Virus record (IMG/VR): IMGVR_UViG_2778261171_000002
DNA: 18,784 nt
Origin: a virus
Lineage: Duplodnaviria > Heunggongvirae > Uroviricota > Caudoviricetes
Strand: one strand, 5' to 3'
In this document: positions 25-18,784 of the stretch, piece by piece
How the letters are laid out: every line of letters starts with the position of its first letter
How positions within the stretch are numbered: position 1 is the stretch's first letter
Translations under genes and position numbers: made by a program
The notes under the pieces: model-generated
Database searches by the model: none
The model's input: only the letters and a program-made list of their open reading frames with translations
Told to the model about the DNA's origin: nothing

Positions 25-357
25 TTACCCGAAATCTGATTTATTCAACAAAGCCACTTCCCCGTCAACACAGACTTTCAGCTCACCATATGTCGGGTGG
101 ACAAGCGTGCCGGGACCGGGTTTATTCAGCGCTTCAATCAGGCGATCGCGCTGGTCAAAGCAGTCATCTCCCACCACATAAGCTGTGATGGACGGGCGGA
201 AAGTGACTTTTCCCAGATCTTCGGTATAGGGCTTGTCGCGGTTCGGGTATTCATGTGTTTCCACACGGCGACCGGTTCCCGCACTTTCTTCTTCAACCTT
301 AAACGGCACACCTCGAAATGACGCATCCTGAAGCCTGTCTTTCCACGTCATATACAC
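25..357 (-). CDS. Mu gpN-like DNA circulation protein, N-terminal domain only (110 aa; possibly truncated)
   Basis: N-terminus MxxTWKDRLQDASFRGVPFKVE resembles the DNA-circulation N-terminal domain of Mu-like tails; in-frame stop at 25-27 although family members are usually 400-500 aa; track start is GTG, ATG two codons downstream. Confidence 0.45.
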   Translation of the reverse strand: MYMTWKDRLQDASFRGVPFKVEEESAGTGRRVETHEYPNRDKPYTEDLGKVTFRPSITAYVVGDDCFDQRDRLIEALNKPGPGTLVHPTYGELKVCVDGEVALLNKSDFG

Positions 358-412: not shown

Positions 413-943
413 TTAGCGAGTCAGAAACAACGAATCTTTATACTTTTGCTGTTGTTCATTTAAATACTTAGCTGTTTCATCGCTGGCAAATGGAAATATT
501 ACCGTATTTTTAGGCATGGTAATTTCTTTTTTGTCCAGCGTCAGAGTAAACATAGGAACATACTGAGCAGAGTAACGCACCGCAGAAACGAGCTCTAGTT
601 TAGACTCTTCAATAACACTTAAATTATCCAGGCTAACTTTCTCTTCATCTTTTTTCTTTGACGCATTTAAAGTTTTTATTACTTTATTTAATTTCTCCTG
701 AAAATCCTCCTTAAAGTTTTCAGGATTGCCGTCGACAACAAGAATCTGTTCACCCTGATTATCTGGAAAAATAATCTTTGCACTTATCAATTTATTTTCT
801 TTATAAACATCACCAAGTTTTATGGCTCCTCCAGATAACTGAATAATATGTTCATCTTTAAAGGAGATGTTGCCAGAGATTATGAGAGATGAAAAAATAG
901 CCGCTGCTCCAAGAATTACACTTGCTGTGATATAGCCTTTCAT
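413..943 (-). CDS. Hypothetical membrane-anchored or secreted protein (176 aa) in an AT-rich moron
   Basis: ATG start; hydrophobic N-terminal segment (ITASVILGAAAIFSSLIISG) then a K/E/D/N-rich domain; local GC far below the flanking tail genes; own terminator. Confidence 0.65.
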   Translation of the reverse strand: MKGYITASVILGAAAIFSSLIISGNISFKDEHIIQLSGGAIKLGDVYKENKLISAKIIFPDNQGEQILVVDGNPENFKEDFQEKLNKVIKTLNASKKKDEEKVSLDNLSVIEESKLELVSAVRYSAQYVPMFTLTLDKKEITMPKNTVIFPFASDETAKYLNEQQQKYKDSLFLTR

Positions 944-1034: not shown

Positions 1035-2867
1035 CTACCAAAATCGGGTATAGCCAACATCGTGATTTATATCAATGCCACTGGAGCGTGTTTCCGTAAC
1101 CCGCATACCTGGTGGCATATTTATAAATGATACCTTGATCTCACCATCAACTTTTGGCGCGGTAGCTTTATTAATCATGAAGGGATTCGAGCCTGTGGCA
1201 TCGGAGGCGTTGTTTGCCTGAGCCGGATCCACCGCCGGATAAGGAGTGTATCCCCGTGCCGGTATTCCCGTCCCATAAGCATCATAAGCACCCGCGCCCC
1301 ACTGCGCAGAGTTAATGGCATCGACCGTGTCACCGGAACTGTCGGTAAACCACTCAATAATTGGCTTCAGCTTGTCCCACATATCCTGAAACCACTTAAC
1401 AACCGGCCCCCAGTTATTGATCACCATCCCCATCGGCGACCAGGCAAAAACTTTCTTAAGGAGTTCCCAGCCAGCCTCAAAATAAGGACCAATGGTTTCC
1501 CAGAGCTTCTTGAAATAAGGTCCGACAACATCCCAGTTAGTGATAATTAATCCCGCAGCCAGGGCTATCGCCGTCGCAATCATGCCAATCGGCGTCATCG
1601 ACATGATCCTGCTGACAATGCTGATGGCACTGCCCACGCCCATCAATCCCAGTTTCAGAATCGCAAGACCGGCAGCAAGCCCGACGACGCCGCGAATAAC
1701 CCGGGGATTTTCATCCGCAAACTTCGTGAATTTTTCCCCCAACTCCCCCAGCCATTGCGTGATATTTTTAGCGTCACCAGAAAATGCGCCGCCAATAGCC
1801 GCAAGGCCGTTAGTTGCGGTCCCTGTCATTGCCTCCCACAGGTTGGACAGCGTACCAAGCTGTGCCTGAACACGTTTATTCAGGCTGGCCTGTTTATTCA
1901 TCTTCTGCTGGATCTGATCGTAGCCATCCTTTCCTTTATCGATTAGTGCATTGACCACCTGAAGGGTTTCGGCATCATCACCAAATATTGCCTTAAGTAC
2001 ACCGGTTCGCTTAACGTCGGTCAGTTTTCGCAGCTTTGCCAGTTGCCCGAACATGTTATCAAGACCGCCAAAACTCCCTTTGCCATCAGTAAAATCGAGC
2101 TGTACCCCGAGTTTCTGGCGGGCCATGATTTTATTGACGTCCCTGATTTTCTTAACGCTTAATCCGGACTGGATAACTTTTCGCAGGGCATTACCTGCCG
2201 ACTCCCCGTTCATCCCCATCTGATCCATCATGACACTGATGGGGGCAAGACTCTGTGCAGCCTGAAGACCGTCCTTATTCACCATCTTCAGAACAGAGCT
2301 GGTTTTAGTGAAGAATGACAGCATGTTGGTGTCGTCAACGCCCAGATAAAACGCCTTCTGAATTGTGTCGAACAGCCCCATCATGTCTTCTGAGGCCGTT
2401 CCGGTAGCATCCTGCATCTTTGCGGCAAACTCGGCAGCCGCTTCCGGTGTTTTTTTCAGTTGTACCGCAAGATAAGCTGTCGCTTTACCCACACCACCCA
2501 GAATGTTTTCTGCCGGGATCCCCTGACGCACCAGCATCTGCATCATGTTCTGGAAATCAGCCGTTGTACCGGGTAGCTGGTTACCCAGGCCAATAGCCAG
2601 TTTATTGATGTCCTGAAAGCTCTTTCCAACCTCGCCGTTCGCATCCATCATGGCGACTTTCAGCCCGGTAGCGGCGTTTTCCTGATCGGCATAAGATTTC
2701 AGGGAAAGCGTCAGCCCCGCTGCCAATCCGCCACCAAGCGCCAGCCCACCCTGTGACGCCTCTTCCGCCTGGCGTTTAAATCCCCGGATTTTCTTTTGCA
2801 TTTTCGACAGCGCGGGAGAAAGCCTGTCGACACCGGTGATCAACGCCTTAAGCTCAAATTCAGCCAT
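1035..2867 (-). CDS. Tail tape measure protein (610 aa)
   Basis: Located directly after tube and chaperone genes; long Ala/Gly/Leu/Gln-rich protein with a central hydrophobic segment typical of tape measure proteins; ATG start. Confidence 0.8.
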   Translation of the reverse strand: MAEFELKALITGVDRLSPALSKMQKKIRGFKRQAEEASQGGLALGGGLAAGLTLSLKSYADQENAATGLKVAMMDANGEVGKSFQDINKLAIGLGNQLPGTTADFQNMMQMLVRQGIPAENILGGVGKATAYLAVQLKKTPEAAAEFAAKMQDATGTASEDMMGLFDTIQKAFYLGVDDTNMLSFFTKTSSVLKMVNKDGLQAAQSLAPISVMMDQMGMNGESAGNALRKVIQSGLSVKKIRDVNKIMARQKLGVQLDFTDGKGSFGGLDNMFGQLAKLRKLTDVKRTGVLKAIFGDDAETLQVVNALIDKGKDGYDQIQQKMNKQASLNKRVQAQLGTLSNLWEAMTGTATNGLAAIGGAFSGDAKNITQWLGELGEKFTKFADENPRVIRGVVGLAAGLAILKLGLMGVGSAISIVSRIMSMTPIGMIATAIALAAGLIITNWDVVGPYFKKLWETIGPYFEAGWELLKKVFAWSPMGMVINNWGPVVKWFQDMWDKLKPIIEWFTDSSGDTVDAINSAQWGAGAYDAYGTGIPARGYTPYPAVDPAQANNASDATGSNPFMINKATAPKVDGEIKVSFINMPPGMRVTETRSSGIDINHDVGYTRFW

Positions 2868-3027
2868 GTGTGCGTTTCTCCTGCTCTATCCTGTTTGCCT
2901 GACTGACCAGCAAGGGAATTTCACTGATCGGCATATTCAGCAATTCGAAGGGATTAATGCGCCAGTAGCTGGCGCAGTCAAAGAAGCGATCAGTGAGGTA
3001 TTCAGCCGTCAGGCCTGGAGGAAAAAA
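2860..3027 (-). CDS. Frameshift extension of the tail chaperone (E'/GT-like), reached by -1 slippage at T_TTT_TTC
   Basis: Slippery heptamer TTTTTTC at minus-strand 3027..3021, just before the chaperone stop; the -1 frame stays open (FFPPGLTAEYL...) to a stop at 2860-2862 beside the tape measure ATG. Confidence 0.55.
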   Translation of the reverse strand, partial: FFPPGLTAEYLTDRFFDCASYWRINPFELLNMPISEIPLLVSQANRIEQEKRTHG

Positions 3028-3278
3028 CCAGCCACAAGCCACGCCGCTGCATTCAGGTCTGCCGGAGACATCTGGTCGACAGAGCTTTGCGGCACTTTCG
3101 CCAGCCGCACAATGTATTTCGACACCACATGCGCCAGAAGTCTGACGGACTCATCCTGATTCATCTGGTAGGGATACCCCAGCTCGCGGACATCCTTCCC
3201 GGTGGGTTCATCAAACTCCAGTACGGAGAGTGTCTCACCATGAGCGATAATCGGTTTCTTTAACTCAAGCTCTTTCAT
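3009..3278 (-). CDS. Tail assembly chaperone (P2 gpE / lambda G analogue, 89 aa)
   Basis: Small ORF between tube and tape measure genes; overlapped at its 3' end by a -1 frame ORF that runs up to the tape measure start. Confidence 0.7.
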   Translation of the reverse strand: MKELELKKPIIAHGETLSVLEFDEPTGKDVRELGYPYQMNQDESVRLLAHVVSKYIVRLAKVPQSSVDQMSPADLNAAAWLVAGFFLQA

Positions 3279-3634
3279 TACTGGTAATCCCCTTCTTCAC
3301 CGTGGAACTCAAGATCAACCGTGCCTTCTTCGGCATTATGGTTCGCTTCTCCGTGCAGCCAGGCGGACGACAATACATAGACCTGACCGTTCGCCAGCTC
3401 GGCAGTGATGGTCATCTCATCAGACGAGGTGATTTTGCTCACCGGAAAATTCTTCGGCACCTTGAAGGTCCCTTTGACATAAGGCGCACGGTGAGTTTCC
3501 TTGCGGTCCACTGAACCGTCCAGGCCGATGATGTCATCATTGACCGTCCTGTTCATGGGCACCTCAATGCCGCCGGTCAGCGATAGCTGCTGACCGTCAA
3601 TTTTGAAATAACAGGTTCCCCCGATACGGGCCAT
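3278..3634 (-). CDS. Tail tube protein (Mu gpM-like, 118 aa)
   Basis: Small acidic protein directly after the sheath gene with start/stop overlap; order sheath-tube-chaperone-tape measure. Confidence 0.8.
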   Translation of the reverse strand: MARIGGTCYFKIDGQQLSLTGGIEVPMNRTVNDDIIGLDGSVDRKETHRAPYVKGTFKVPKNFPVSKITSSDEMTITAELANGQVYVLSSAWLHGEANHNAEEGTVDLEFHGEEGDYQ

Positions 3635-5130
3635 TATGCAGACTCCTCTGAATACTGAAGACGGAACTGGTTAACCACGGCAAAGACACGCAACTGGTTA
3701 ACATAGTCAGGCGGGAACAGCGTGTTCAGGCGGTTCGGATCGCTGGCATCACGCTCCACAACCAGGTACTGCTTAAACAGTTCGTAGTTTTCCACGATCC
3801 CCGCACGCTCAAGCTGACGGTAGGTTGCCAGCAGTTCCCCTTTGATCACCGCCGGGGTGACAATCGCCTGACCGGGACCAAAGCGGGTACCGTCACTGGC
3901 AAGCTTGTGACGCCCGTACTTACTGGTAATGACGGATTTCAGTTTGCGCAGTACATACGCGCTGGTATGCAGTGTCTCACTGTCGAGGTAGCTGTTATCC
4001 GCAACCCCGTAAGCGTTTTTCCTGTACGTGGTGACATCACGCTGAATGCGCAGTACCCCGCTTTCGACATACGCCGTTGCCACGCCATGAGACAGCAGGG
4101 TCTGTTGTTCGGTCATCGTGAACCGTTTCCCCTTCGGCGCAGGCAGCATACCCACCAGCTCACCGGTCTGCGTGGGACGTGCCGGATCGTTGCGGATAAA
4201 CACCGCTGCGCGGGCGGTACGGCTTGCCGCAAGTTCGTCGGCAGGCGTCTGGGTCTCTTTTTCGTACCCTGCCAGGGTAATGTGCTGCTGGTTAAACTGG
4301 TCACCTGCGGTCACCAGTTCTGACAGCGTGCCGATCTTTGCCGTATACACATGACCATACAGCTGACGCGCATAGCTCCAGCGACCGCTGGTATCGTTCA
4401 TCTCGGTCACCAGCGTGTTAACGGAGGCCGTGTCGTTGAACGGCAGGCCGATATAATCAAACGGCTCATCCGCCATTGCAGCCACCGCGCCGGTGAGAAC
4501 CGGAGCACCCGTTCCGGCGGTACCCGTCGCCACGGCAATCTGTACGCCCGCTGGCAGCACTTCGCCCCCACCAAAGCCGTAGTAATTGAGGCTGACAGGA
4601 ATTTCATTCCCGCAAAGCCCCTTATGACGCGCGGTAAGTGTGACCACGCCTGCCGAAGATGAAGCCGTAAACGGCAGGGCCGGAACGGCATTGATGGCAT
4701 CTTTGATACTGCTGGCAATCGTCGTGACGTTATCGCCGTTGGTCACCGGAGCCTGCACGCGGGTACGTCCCACATAGACATTCACCGTGCCGCTTTCGGT
4801 TGCTTCCCCGGTCACCGCCAGCGTAACCGTTGCCGCCGCGCCTGTGGCTTCCGGAACGGCAATCACATACAGCTCACCAAACGGGTCTGTCTGGCGATAA
4901 GCCTCGACCATACGCGCCAGCTGACTTCCCGCACCACAAATCTGGCGTGCATAGTCTGCCGACGGCATCAGCACCAGACTGTTGGCAACAATCTCTGCAC
5001 CGTTATTGGCATGACCAATCAGCAGCGATGCTCCGCTGTCCTGTGCAGTATTCGCAGCCTGGTTATCCATTTCCGCATAAAACAGCGGAACCAGCGTATT
5101 CGACGGAATGGTGTTAAAGCTTATCGTCAT
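3634..5130 (-). CDS. Contractile tail sheath protein (Mu gpL-like, 498 aa)
   Basis: About 500 aa protein at the expected position upstream of tube; ATG start. Confidence 0.85.
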   Translation of the reverse strand: MTISFNTIPSNTLVPLFYAEMDNQAANTAQDSGASLLIGHANNGAEIVANSLVLMPSADYARQICGAGSQLARMVEAYRQTDPFGELYVIAVPEATGAAATVTLAVTGEATESGTVNVYVGRTRVQAPVTNGDNVTTIASSIKDAINAVPALPFTASSSAGVVTLTARHKGLCGNEIPVSLNYYGFGGGEVLPAGVQIAVATGTAGTGAPVLTGAVAAMADEPFDYIGLPFNDTASVNTLVTEMNDTSGRWSYARQLYGHVYTAKIGTLSELVTAGDQFNQQHITLAGYEKETQTPADELAASRTARAAVFIRNDPARPTQTGELVGMLPAPKGKRFTMTEQQTLLSHGVATAYVESGVLRIQRDVTTYRKNAYGVADNSYLDSETLHTSAYVLRKLKSVITSKYGRHKLASDGTRFGPGQAIVTPAVIKGELLATYRQLERAGIVENYELFKQYLVVERDASDPNRLNTLFPPDYVNQLRVFAVVNQFRLQYSEESA

Positions 5131-5284
5131 TGGTGTTCACCTTTTTATTCACGCGCCGGATATCACCCGCTGCTTCACGGCGCAGCCAGTAGTTGTTCTC
5201 GTCAACATTTCGCCCTTCGGCGGGCAAAAGGTCGCCGCGGGCAGGGTCAGGCACTGACCGCCCTTTAACAGGTTTGACAAACAT
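5114..5284 (-). CDS. Small hypothetical protein (56 aa) immediately upstream of the sheath gene
   Basis: ATG with a GAGGA Shine-Dalgarno 8 nt upstream; ORF ends overlapping the sheath start; below the size cutoff of the supplied ORF track. Confidence 0.35.
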   Translation of the reverse strand: MFVKPVKGRSVPDPARGDLLPAEGRNVDENNYWLRREAAGDIRRVNKKVNTNDDKL

Positions 5285-5292
5285 GAGGATCC

Positions 5293-5853
5293 TCAGGAAG
5301 GAAGGGTTATTTCGGTGTGATGTTCGATATCGCCGTCAGGCCCGTTACCGGGCTCGAGATAATCAACATCAATCGCCAGCGTTTGCAGTTCACCCAGACT
5401 GTTCAGATCATCCTGCTGGCGGGTATCGTCTTCAGTCAGCTCGCTGATGACCGAAAAATCGAACTGATAAATCAGCTCATGACGATTCAGATCCAGCAGC
5501 GTGCCGCCGTCATAGGTAATCGGGTTACCGCACGCTTCCGGGTTCCAGCCCAGCAGGGCCTTAAAGAGCATTTGCCGGACATCGTCCACCACATCATACG
5601 AGGAAAACTGACCGCGCTCATCACGCCCGTTACTCAGTATGACAACCACGGAGAAGCCCTCTTTCAGCTCCTGCCAGTAGTCGGTCTGGCTTTTGTTTTC
5701 TCCCGGAGAGTCATCACCCGGTACCACATACGCCGCCGGGAGTCTCAGCTTTCCGACCTCCGGCAGATTTTTGAACTGTGCCGCGCCTGCCACCCGGTTT
5801 TCAAAATACGGGCAGCGGGCACGCAGCGCAGCAATAACAGGCGTCAGTTTCAT
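5293..5853 (-). CDS. Mu gp37-like tail-associated protein (186 aa), possible tail terminator or sheath stabiliser
   Basis: Position between connector genes and sheath; acidic protein; ATG start. Confidence 0.45.
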   Translation of the reverse strand: MKLTPVIAALRARCPYFENRVAGAAQFKNLPEVGKLRLPAAYVVPGDDSPGENKSQTDYWQELKEGFSVVVILSNGRDERGQFSSYDVVDDVRQMLFKALLGWNPEACGNPITYDGGTLLDLNRHELIYQFDFSVISELTEDDTRQQDDLNSLGELQTLAIDVDYLEPGNGPDGDIEHHTEITLPS

Positions 5854-6356
5854 CTGTGTCGTCGCTCCGGCTTCAGTGATTTACGCAATTCCCGCGCCAG
5901 AAAATAGCGTGTCCAGCTGCGGTTCTTTTCAAGCGTTTCCACCATGAAGTTATTACGTGGAGCCAGTCGCCAGCCGCTGCCACCGGATGCACCACGATGA
6001 TGACTACGACGACGTTTTGCTCCTCCCCGGACACCAAAAAACAGAAACGCCGGATAGAAGTCACCAGAGATCATCCGGTTCCCCTTCCCGTTGCGCTGGT
6101 TAGGGGCAATGCGTGTCATAAAACCGGCTCGCTTTTTACTGGCTCTCGGCACCATATAACCAATCGAACGAGCCAGGCGTCCGGTCTGATAACCGGGGTT
6201 TTCACCCGGTGCCGACCGCGCACGGCGCATCACCAGCCGACGGGCATCACGCATATGACGCTGCCCAATCGTGACAAACGCCCGCCGGACACGGGCGCGG
6301 TTAAAGCGCATCTCGGCGGGCTGCTGAACATCAACGTGAAAAAAGGGAGTCGCCAT
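5850..6356 (-). CDS. HK97 gp10-like neck/tail completion protein (168 aa)
   Basis: Arg-rich protein in the head-tail connector block; 4-nt overlap with the next gene. Confidence 0.5.
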   Translation of the reverse strand: MATPFFHVDVQQPAEMRFNRARVRRAFVTIGQRHMRDARRLVMRRARSAPGENPGYQTGRLARSIGYMVPRASKKRAGFMTRIAPNQRNGKGNRMISGDFYPAFLFFGVRGGAKRRRSHHRGASGGSGWRLAPRNNFMVETLEKNRSWTRYFLARELRKSLKPERRHR

Positions 6357-13642: not shown

Positions 13643-13822
13643 TCCCCGCTTTATCCAAATTGCATTGCCAGAATGCCGACAACAGACTGACATTCAAATC
13701 CTGACTACCTCCAATAGTCTGACCGTACACCTATATAGTTTTAATTTTCATCAATCCATTTAACTATCGTTTAATTGTTGTCACATAGGATTCTGCCGTT
13801 TTTAACAATGCAGGATAATAAG

Positions 13823-14116
13823 ATGAAAAAAATGTTGTTTTCTGCCGCTCTGGCAATGCTTATTACAGGATGTGCTCAACAGACGTTTACTGTTGGAAAC
13901 AAACCGACAGCAGTAACACCAAAGGAAACCATCACCCATCATTTCTTCGTTTCGGGAATTGGACAGGAGAAAACTGTTGATGCAGCCAAAATTTGTGGCG
14001 GCGCAGAAAATGTGGTTAAAACAGAAACCCAGCAAACATTCGTAAATGGATTGCTCGGTTTTATTACTTTAGGCATTTATACTCCGCTGGAAGCGCGGGT
14101 GTATTGCTCACAATAA
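13823..14116 (+). CDS. bor: Bor lipoprotein (97 aa; the track ORF starts upstream at 13775)
   Basis: MKKMLFSAALAMLITGCAQQTF with lipobox LITGC; near-identical in memory to lambda Bor; opposite strand to the lysis genes as in lambda. Confidence 0.9.
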   Translation: MKKMLFSAALAMLITGCAQQTFTVGNKPTAVTPKETITHHFFVSGIGQEKTVDAAKICGGAENVVKTETQQTFVNGLLGFITLGIYTPLEARVYCSQ

Positions 14117-17168: not shown

Positions 17169-17331
17169 GATTCCTCCTTGCTGCCAGTCGCAACCATTTT
17201 TTATCAACCAGGCTGGCGGTATATCCGAGCAGAGTTGGTATTTCGGATGGCTTCAGCTCAGGTTTACGCTTACGACGATTTGGTACTTTGTAGATGTGTC
17301 CGTTCATGACACGAATAAGCGGTGTAGCCAT
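17161..17331 (-). CDS. ninE: NinE-like protein (56 aa from the internal ATG)
   Basis: Basic small protein with RRKRKP motif; ATG overlaps the ninB stop (TAATG); the track ORF of 77 aa starts upstream. Confidence 0.65.
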   Translation of the reverse strand: MATPLIRVMNGHIYKVPNRRKRKPELKPSEIPTLLGYTASLVDKKWLRLAARRNHG

Positions 17332-17786
17332 TACGCCTCCTGCTTGTCGCGCAGCAGCTGGAACTCGCAGCTCTGTGGAATAGTCAGGTGGCAACCAATA
17401 TTCATCGCCCAGGCTTCAACCTTACACAGGAAGACATACATCTCTCCGGTATCAAGATCGGAGGTATGGCGTAACGACTGGATAGTGGTGATATCACCGG
17501 TTACGACATCAACCAGGTCTTTGGTTTCATAACCGAGATATGTGTGTTTGAGAGCATCTTTTACCCAAGCTGGAGTGGCGAACGTTTTACCCCTGCTGAT
17601 GAGGTATTCACTGATTTCGCTGTACCACATGTGGCTGAGTGCATTCTGGGAAAGACTGCGTTTCTCACGCCACGGTTTAAGCACCAGGCGAAAGCATTTG
17701 CCCTCCTCCAGATAAGGCTGGATCTGCCGACCGATAGCGGTGAAGTTGCCGCGATGTAATTTGATGCCGTCTTGTGAGAGGTTCAC
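17331..17786 (-). CDS. NinB (Orf) family recombination protein, YbcN-like (151 aa)
   Basis: [16 protein letters not shown] resembles the lambda NinB region SLDQNRKLWACLGDVS; GGAGG Shine-Dalgarno before a GTG start. Confidence 0.7.
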
Positions 17787-17818
17787 GCTTCCCCTCCGCA
17801 GAGGTCAAACGTTGGATG

Positions 17819-17845
17819 CAAAAAAACGCAGGTGCATTTCTGCAT
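17819..17845 (-). terminator. Candidate rho-independent terminator downstream of the orphan 251-aa gene
   Basis: Minus-strand hairpin AUGCAG-loop-CUGCGU (one G-U pair) followed by UUUUUUU, about 125 nt past the stop at 17971. Confidence 0.4.
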
Positions 17846-17970
17846 CTGTGAAGGGAGAAGAGAGTTTGGATTGTATGTGCGCATAAACGTCCCCGTTTAG
17901 CGCAGAAGTCACCGGAGTTGTTCAGGCTCCGATGACATGATTATGGCGGGTTGATTATTGAAAATCAAAG

Positions 17971-18726
17971 TTAATCGTACGAGTCGAGTATGTTCTGAAA
18001 CGCCCAGCCATCCTCCTTAGGAACACAAGACAGAATCGAATGAATTAGATCCCCTGCGGAAAGAAGTAACCCTTCTTGCCCTTCAAGAAAATAACGCCAT
18101 TTAGGTCCATGAAACAGATTGTTCCGTAACCGGAAACAAACGAACAAGCACACTGCAAGCTGAGTCTCAGGCTCGGTTGTCATAGCTTGCATGGCTGAAA
18201 AACAGTCATCTCTCGCCTTTTGAGAGGTGTGGTGTAATTCCCCGCATAGGCTTTCAAACTTGCTTTTATCATTTACATAGCGTTCTGAAAAAAAATCGTA
18301 TGTACACTTGAGAACCCCCAGATCCACAACCTCCATTTGCAAAAGACGATTGGCATATTTCGCACTTTTGCCTTGCCCCCCAGCGCAATTAAGAAGTAGA
18401 GACTCGAAGAAAGAGAAGTACAAAAAATAACGATTAACGGCGGTAAGGATAGATGGGGTAATCCTGCCTTCTGCATTAATCAACTCGTCAAATTCTGATG
18501 AAAAATCCAACTGTTCATCCTTTTCCATTATATTCGGCCATTTATTGATATTGCACATCAGTCGCTCTTGGCAATGACAGGTTTGCTCTCGGTAATGTCT
18601 CAAACGCCCCAAAAAGTAGTCTCGCAAATGCTCTAGGGAAGGTGCGAATAAGCAGGTCATTTCTTCCCAAGCTGACTCGCTGATTAAAATTTCGCGGATC
18701 TGGGCCGATTTTTTTCCCGCAAACAC
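17971..18726 (-). CDS. Orphan hypothetical protein (251 aa from GTG; 229 aa if the first ATG is used) with a C-terminal Rx4H (HEPN-like) motif
   Basis: Long ORF in a lower-GC segment upstream of the nin genes; RNNLFH encoded at 18109..18126; Cys/His-rich N-terminus. Confidence 0.65.
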   Translation of the reverse strand: MFAGKKSAQIREILISESAWEEMTCLFAPSLEHLRDYFLGRLRHYREQTCHCQERLMCNINKWPNIMEKDEQLDFSSEFDELINAEGRITPSILTAVNRYFLYFSFFESLLLNCAGGQGKSAKYANRLLQMEVVDLGVLKCTYDFFSERYVNDKSKFESLCGELHHTSQKARDDCFSAMQAMTTEPETQLAVCLFVCFRLRNNLFHGPKWRYFLEGQEGLLLSAGDLIHSILSCVPKEDGWAFQNILDSYD

Positions 18727-18784
18727 ATCGAATCAGCCTATTTAGGCTATTTTTTCCACCATTTCTGGCGTTATTTCCGGTTTT

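Follow-up and report, generated by a model that had tools for sequence, protein, structure and literature searches.

What is encoded by an open reading frame (ORF) of 251 codons, 17971..18726 (-), that lies close to one end of an 18,784-nt stretch of viral DNA (IMG/VR record IMGVR_UViG_2778261171_000002, Caudoviricetes; hereafter the window, to which position numbers refer), and could its product be a ribonuclease (RNase) of the HEPN superfamily? The original prediction, made from the sequence alone, had taken the ORF for an orphan gene of low GC content, acquired horizontally as a 'moron', and had proposed on the strength of one short motif that it may encode a HEPN-type RNase acting in defence or as a toxin. 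We find that the ORF is a gene of 185 codons at 17971..18528 (-), here named X, that has been lengthened artificially by an insertion sequence (IS) and a decayed neighbouring gene, and that the 5' end of the 251-codon ORF is an artefact. X is one of a large family, so far unannotated, whose members are stand-alone, all-alpha and about 165–200 residues long. This is probably a new HEPN-like family and X a candidate solo defence nuclease, by analogy with the protein HepS of a Salmonella prophage.

The GTG start of the 251-codon ORF is present in the ORF listing as originally given, but both this start and the first ATG, from which a product of 229 residues had been considered, lie within IS DNA, and the corresponding gene limits are a read-through of the IS and a pseudogene. 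When positions 17800-18784 were compared by megablast with 5,426 complete E. coli genomes, the segment matched two chromosomes at 99.6–100% identity with the match ending at 18636, and the last ~150 bp of the window matched thousands of chromosomal and plasmid sites. This tail is 98.8% identical to copies of ISKpn26 in 4,707 plasmid records, and phage and plasmid annotations assign it to an element of the IS5 family. Position 18637 is the first of the inverted repeat GGAAGGTGCGAATAAG, which abuts the tetranucleotide CTAG at 18633-18636; elements of the IS5 family insert at CTAG-type targets. Given that 18637-18784 is the end of ISKpn26, codons 1-30 of the ORF are encoded by the IS. In an annotated ISKpn26 copy (locus L091), it is at this terminus that the transposase gene ends, facing out of the element and oriented like the window ORF; by this orientation the transposase gene of the window copy would be located past the end of the window, encoded on the strand of X and directed at X. 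In the plasmid copy of L091, a 75-residue 'hypothetical protein' (1454..1678 (-)) is annotated across the ISKpn26 end. An ORF that stays open through this terminus yields spurious fusion ORFs wherever the element lands, the window included, and gene calls can be inflated by ORFs running out of IS ends.

Codons 31-66 of the ORF comprise the 3' part of a gene for the theta subunit of DNA polymerase III and a short linker. It was the weak theta match of residues 31-49, seen in Pfam, PHROGs and NCBIfam, that exposed this pseudogene fusion. A Klebsiella oxytoca prophage (L007) carries an intact theta gene of 85 codons (5757..6014), which overlaps the start of the X homologue by 14 nt. The annotation of E. 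coli LR-50 (L002) gives a frameshifted theta, and in the lineage of the window and of E. coli 24A16CRGN010 (L001) theta has acquired an early stop, indels and a change of frame. In a DNA alignment, the ATG of the relatives (MQEN...) aligns with the ATG at 18528 (MEKDEQ...). The closest homologues of X are likewise proteins of 185 residues beginning ME[ND]..., within an overall range of 183–203 residues, and the 558-bp coding sequence of X shows 100% identity with the IS-free copies that two E. coli chromosomes (L001 and strain B1S11) and one IMG/VR contig (L092) carry. The RefSeq model of the IS-free gene (L001 6172..6849; WP_024238538.1) has 225 residues. Its start is probably 40 codons early, the first 40 residues being a spurious, out-of-context C-terminus of the decayed theta joined in frame; the frame change in theta, which joins its C-terminal codons to the downstream gene, accounts for this annotation.

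ISKpn26 sits 108 bp upstream of the start codon of X, inside the theta pseudogene, and all native upstream signals have been replaced. In this copy the insertion would sever X from the early-right transcript of the prophage while leaving its coding sequence intact, and read-through from the IS transposase gene could reach X. It might be argued that the window X is a silenced relic, cut off from its transcript and without current function whatever the rest of the family does, and both the replacement of everything upstream and the adjoining theta gene, already a pseudogene, speak for this. We regard such a state as unlikely: the identity of the coding sequence with the IS-free copies means that there has been no decay since the IS insertion, and the transposase gene points toward X, hence read-through transcription is possible. 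Moreover, silencing would bear on the expression state of this copy and not on the nature of the protein.

We turn to the protein itself. No Pfam, NCBIfam or PADLOC family matches it (in PADLOC, none even at E≤10), and its PHROGs match, phrog_27260 (E 1e-8), has no known function. The description of the ORF as an orphan is nevertheless wrong, since relatives are numerous. A word-indexed search returned 39 X-related clusters, all from Enterobacteriaceae, all 'hypothetical' and all lacking Pfam domains, and an exhaustive profile search of 1.84 billion representatives identified 550 proteins at E≤1e-3, mostly stand-alone and of 160–180 residues; counted as 50%-identity clusters, the family thus numbers 550 or more. 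When the indexed search was repeated with a profile of 143 sequences, unnamed proteins alone were recovered once more. The family is currently invisible to Pfam, NCBIfam, PADLOC and the function labels of PHROGs.

The motif on which the original prediction was built, R-N-N-L-F-H, occupies residues 201-206 of the 251-codon ORF (R201-H206) as described, equivalent to R135-H140 of the 185-residue protein and to R145-H150 in the 195-residue numbering of our alignments and models. It had been cautioned that a short motif can arise by chance. This is correct for a lone Rx4-6H, which is uninformative because ~0.5 matches are expected from composition, but near-total invariance across a family whose members are 20–30% identical is beyond chance. 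We scored conservation in 143 diverse members (alignment A5; 18–37% identical to X; 195-residue numbering). Conservation of the Arg and the His among homologues had been set beforehand as a test that could refute the HEPN reading, and these residues, R145 and H150, are conserved in 143/143 and 142/143 sequences, respectively. N147 is likewise invariant (143/143). The motif reads in full R-x-R-N-N-L-F-H-G-x-K-W; R143, G151 and K153 are each present in 142 of the 143 members, and two upstream residues, E52 and R93, in 141. Position 146, which directly follows the Arg, is N in 131 sequences, H in 7 and D in 1 (N/H/D in 139/143). HEPN domains are defined by an Rx4-6H motif in which the residue after the Arg is polar, mostly N, D or H (PMC3710099), and the X family follows this rule.

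AlphaFold2 (AF2) models of X, calculated with 26 sequences (predicted local distance difference test score, pLDDT, 83.5; predicted template modelling score, pTM, 0.80) or with 143 sequences (pLDDT 87.4, pTM 0.84), are both all-alpha. In both, R145-L148 form the last turn of a helix spanning residues 130-148/149 and F149-H150 lie in the break before the next helix; the motif is followed by a G-P break and then by two helices, a short one at 151-157 and a long one at 161/162-177/178 that closes the domain, and three shorter helices stand between the first and last helical hairpins. The HEPN core is a four-helix up-down arrangement in which helices 2 and 3 are often separated by an insert, and an upstream acidic residue is often present (PMC3710099). 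In the models, the motif of X straddles the junction of a long helix with the loop after it. This is the HEPN position, at the C-terminal end of core helix 3 and the beginning of the loop to helix 4. PADLOC scans of the 143 members gave scattered, sub-threshold, single-member matches to 14 families, three of which are HEPN models (Cas13-ApeA, 1e-4; CARF_HEPN, 0.007; Cas13a, 0.016). The HEPN-type RNase hypothesis thus still stands, on the conservation of the motif, the polar residue after the Arg, the position of the motif in the AF2 models and the absence of a confident match to a non-HEPN fold. Judged from the invariant R-N-x3-H and the predicted helical fold, it is plausible that X acts as a HEPN-type RNase in phage–bacterium conflict, and HEPN is the best-supported fold assignment for X, one that we consider fairly likely to be right.

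The closest conceptual parallel is HepS (STM14_3211), a solo HEPN abortive-infection anticodon nuclease encoded in an accessory slot of the Salmonella prophage Gifsy-1 (PMC13043305; PDB 9OIJ/9OIK). HepS is a tetramer that cleaves the anticodon loops of tRNAs once the tail-tip protein J has activated it. Comparison with the other HEPN systems reveals both likenesses and differences. The classical HEPN domains of the MNT-HEPN or HepT-MntA type VII toxin–antitoxin pairs (TTHA0636 1wwp, HI0074 1jog, AF0298 2hsb, 7ae2 and 8xdj) are smaller than X, which has three extra helices between its first and last helical hairpins and does not match the Pfam HEPN or HepT models. No neighbouring nucleotidyltransferase, the antitoxin of such pairs, was found at the enterobacterial prophage loci, in the flanks of 74 distant genome loci or at 8 further loci. 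With lactococcal and other HEPN abortive infection (Abi) proteins (Abi_2/AbiD/AbiF, AbiU2, AbiV, AbiJ and ApeA), X would share the concept of a stand-alone or N-terminally extended HEPN nuclease that is carried on a mobile element and confers abortive infection; one X-family member weakly matches Cas13-ApeA, as noted above, but no member reaches a curated Pfam or PADLOC threshold. A likeness to the PrrC/RloC/RemAIN-type anticodon nucleases, which combine an ABC ATPase with HEPN, is seen in distant X homologues encoded right after an AAA_13 ABC ATPase, of the type fused to HEPN in PrrC and RloC, and before a Piwi-domain protein. However, the genes for the X homologue and the ATPase are separate rather than fused, the arrangement is confined to three near-identical islands and one other locus, and prophage X has no ATPase neighbour.

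The three islands (L077, L080 and L082) consist of genes for an AAA_13 ABC ATPase (863 residues), an X-family protein (174 residues) and a Piwi-domain protein (730 residues), spaced by 8–12 nt (2315-4906, 4914-5438 and 5450-7642 in L080), and may represent an Argonaute-associated system that uses an X-like protein.

X lies upstream of the nin block, as the original prediction stated, and is directly followed by ninB/ybcN, ninE, ybcO, rusA and Q. Its GC content is low, again as stated: 0.43 across 17971-18528, against 0.52 in the window overall and 0.513 in the nin block. Homologues do occupy the same position in other prophages, between the replication genes or theta and ninB: in enterobacterial prophages X always comes after the replication genes, with variable accessory genes between, and immediately before ninB/ybcN, ninE, ybcO/ninG, rusA and Q. 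X is rare, being present in 4 of the 5,426 complete E. coli genomes and at 45 IMG/VR loci. In a divergent subfamily (L114, L116, L124, L129 and L136), X is 27–30% identical to the window protein; at the same loci theta is 60–73% and NinB up to 95% identical, and the theta-X-ninB synteny is kept. The slot is thus conserved and its occupant hypervariable, a pattern typical of conflict genes. The reading of X as a 'moron' fits its low GC, its rarity and its fixed slot with hypervariable alleles.

Searches by tblastn place a theta gene, intact or decayed, directly upstream of X in essentially all enterobacterial prophage X loci. No partner of an antitoxin-like kind is conserved beside X, and we rejected theta as an antitoxin or obligatory partner because at 10 loci or more an intact X accompanies a theta gene that is frameshifted or fragmented. 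Homologues of DNA polymerase III theta (HolE/Hot-like, PF06440), often decayed, are commonly carried by lambdoid prophages of Enterobacteriaceae. The theta ORFs just upstream of X in L007, L104, L097, L105, L094, L093, L114 and L118 start exactly at the T-tail of an intrinsic terminator, and the theta-X linkage is tight and long-lived.

Distant homologues of X are found mostly in Proteobacteria, also in Bacteroidota and other groups. Their genes adjoin those for TIR proteins, for the AAA_13 ABC ATPase and prokaryotic Argonaute (pAgo; Piwi-domain), and for DUF4365, AbiJ_NTD3-AAA_15, Schlafen-AlbA_2 and SMODS+SLATT proteins, contexts which, outside enterobacterial prophages, resemble defence islands. 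A conserved partner gene was sought at 80 distant genome loci and rejected, the neighbour clusters being common only to closely related islands. At four loci from gut metagenome and isolate contigs (L137-L140; 4736-4984 and 5001-5495), a 20%-identical X homologue lies 16 nt behind a Cro/CI-type helix-turn-helix gene and is divergent from a block of small early phage-like genes, the classic position of exclusion genes expressed in the lysogen. Immediately downstream of the X homologue of another locus, L131, is encoded a 153-residue protein (4544-5002) with the motif E-R-N-R-L-N-H, which has 501 homologues that lack Pfam annotation. We had considered this protein as a DUF4145 member, and hence a bona fide HEPN reference, and dropped the assignment because its relatives are without Pfam annotation; it possibly represents a further unrecognised RNxxxH (HEPN-like) family.

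Taken with the analogy to HepS, these observations lead us to favour, with somewhat more belief than doubt, a reading in which X is an accessory 'moron' of a lambdoid prophage and founds a new HEPN branch, its product being a latent RNase that aborts infection by competing phages. In such a model, the X family would be a new branch of the HEPN superfamily and X a metal-independent endoribonuclease. It would form a dimer or larger oligomer, in which two R135-N-x3-H140 motifs create a composite active site; the His would serve as general base, the scissile phosphate would be held by the Arg and Asn, and E42, R83, R133 and K143, the remaining invariant residues (185-residue numbering), would assist. 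On the model of solo HEPN Abi proteins such as HepS of Gifsy-1, X may be latent until a phage-derived cue activates it, whereupon it would cut tRNA or mRNA and abort the infection by the competing phage.

Several results weigh against the abortive-infection RNase. X is outside every curated HEPN family: Pfam HEPN-clan models match 0/143 members even at E≤10, as was also the case in a 40-member scan, and no profile-level similarity to a recognised HEPN family was found in the Pfam and PDB-sequence scans. Searches of PDB sequences with family profiles gave nothing relevant (a bacterioferritin match at E 0.5 was rejected as noise). A structural check with Foldseek, suggested in the original prediction, gave weak and unspecific results, with nothing at E<0.8 in PDB or BFVD and thus neither a HEPN match nor a confident match to a non-HEPN fold. 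When the family profile was aligned by hhalign with three neighbouring RNxxxH proteins, the L131 protein among them, the motifs fell in register with a probability below 2%. In HEPN domains the upstream acidic residue, close to the motif in space, is often part of Ex3[KR] on helix 2; the invariant E52 is placed instead on the first long helix and is set in F-E-x-[KR]. A literature search found no paper on the X family, and X is absent from all 50,697 sequenced phage records searched. In non-phage settings, a second gene of ~250 codons, variable in kind (encoding, for example, a TIR protein or Endonuclease I), frequently comes after X, which could mean that X is a sensor or adaptor and not the effector; the recurrent downstream genes are mutually unrelated by phmmer and hhalign. 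Lastly, the theta ATG of L001 and L007 stands exactly where a strong intrinsic terminator ends, and consensus scans, which are insensitive, found no promoter between this terminator and X. X may therefore depend on antiterminated early transcription, which would make it a delayed-early lytic gene and not one expressed in the lysogen.

These expression signals bear on a second reading, in which X is a HEPN-like nuclease that serves the lytic cycle of its own phage rather than immunity expressed in the lysogen. Transcribed with theta in the delayed-early phase, from the antiterminated pR operon, it would cut host or rival RNAs for host takeover, for counter-defence or for the exclusion of co-infecting phages. 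X is co-oriented with the early-right operon and embedded in it between the replication and nin genes, it follows the terminator ahead of theta with no consensus promoter after it, and the 14-nt overlap of theta and X in L007 suggests co-translation with a replication-related phage gene. Given the insensitivity of the scans, an independent promoter is nevertheless possible, and the low GC, rarity and allele hypervariability of X fit a dispensable moron better than a lytic function. Since many distant homologues are, in addition, chromosomal, in defence-island contexts or beside a CI-like repressor gene, we consider a lytic role improbable. Least probable of all, in our view, is that X is no nuclease but a helical protein with a binding or regulatory role (for example, as an inhibitor of defence, as the sensor/adaptor of variable effectors encoded nearby or as a replisome-interacting factor linked to theta), whose conserved R/N/H/K residues form a surface for a ligand or partner. 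When charged and polar residues (E, R, R-x-R-N-N, H and K) are almost absolutely invariant among sequences that are 20% identical, a catalytic site is the more usual cause. The motif also agrees with the HEPN consensus in its sequence, its secondary-structure position and the polar residue that follows R; X remains intact where theta decays; and neighbour sets are common only to closely related islands.

Returning to X as a prophage-borne HEPN nuclease, we put forward, tentatively and with more doubt than conviction, a broader proposal by which X would found a second 'solo HEPN' abortive-infection family, unrelated in sequence to the first, whose alleles are swapped at a theta-X-ninB hot spot in the lambdoid prophages of enterobacteria, each tuned to a different phage trigger, and whose relatives elsewhere in Bacteria serve as a conserved RNase module with variable partners (TIR proteins, nucleases, ABC ATPase and pAgo). 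Should X be an active HEPN RNase, a large family (at least 550 clusters at 50% identity) would be added to the HEPN superfamily, and the short list of single-gene prophage immunity proteins would grow by one. To our knowledge, HepS is the only lambdoid single-gene prophage immunity protein that has been solved mechanistically. The theta-X-ninB slot, with flanks up to 95% and X down to 27% identical, would amount to a natural experiment, compact in scale, on how alleles turn over at an accessory locus of phages.

The features of the X region are collected in the table below. The original prediction had noted a terminator-like hairpin behind the ORF. A hairpin is indeed present, the sole one downstream, 124 nt past the stop codon, and is probably the one that had been seen; however, it belongs to the conserved orf33/nin leader rather than to the inserted segment, and is not a terminator of X's own.

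Table. Features at and around gene X, by position in the window.
Feature	Position	Strand	Basis
ninB/ybcN homologue, first nin-block gene downstream of X	17331..17786	-	Weak Pfam NinB match; DNA base-flipping protein YbcN in near-identical L001
Terminator-like hairpin in conserved orf33 leader	17824..17847	-	Scan; within 170-bp segment 92-99% conserved in many lambdoid phages/prophages
Promoter-like site TTGATT-17-CATAAT, just past X stop, at start of conserved nin-block leader	17940..17968	-	Consensus scan; putative -35/-10 in phage 82 record X92588
Gene X, real coding sequence, 185 residues (MEKDEQ...DSYD), predicted all-alpha protein	17971..18528	-	Homologous start in DNA alignment; AF2 models; identical IS-free copies
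Candidate HEPN Rx4H motif codons, R135-N-N-L-F-H140	18109..18126	-	Conservation in 143 homologues; helix position in AF2 models
Linker and 3' remnant of a phage theta pseudogene (DNA polymerase III; HolE/Hot-like), upstream end cut by the IS; shares the frame of X by chance	18529..18636	-	Weak theta matches; alignment with L007 and L002 theta
CTAG target site at IS junction	18633..18636		L001, strain B1S11 and L092 (all IS-free) continue through CTAG; window diverges right after
ISKpn26 (IS5 family), terminal 148 bp, inverted repeat at 18637-18652	18637..18784		98.8% identity to annotated copies; megablast boundary

Elsewhere in the window, an ORF of 176 codons (413..943 (-)) occupies a very AT-rich patch (GC 0.31–0.33, compared with 0.52 overall) between a tape-measure-like gene (1035..2867) and the gene for a Mu-type DNA circulation protein (25..357). 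It has no match in Pfam, in PDB sequences or, by tblastn, in the 50,697 phage records, and looks like a second orphan moron, inside the tail module. A homologue of the Bor lipoprotein (13775..14116 (+)) lies in another low-GC patch. The prophage as a whole is a mosaic, in which a lambdoid early, nin, Q and lysis region is joined with a packaging module of HNH endonuclease and large terminase and with a contractile tail that includes a sheath protein and the Mu-type DNA circulation protein.

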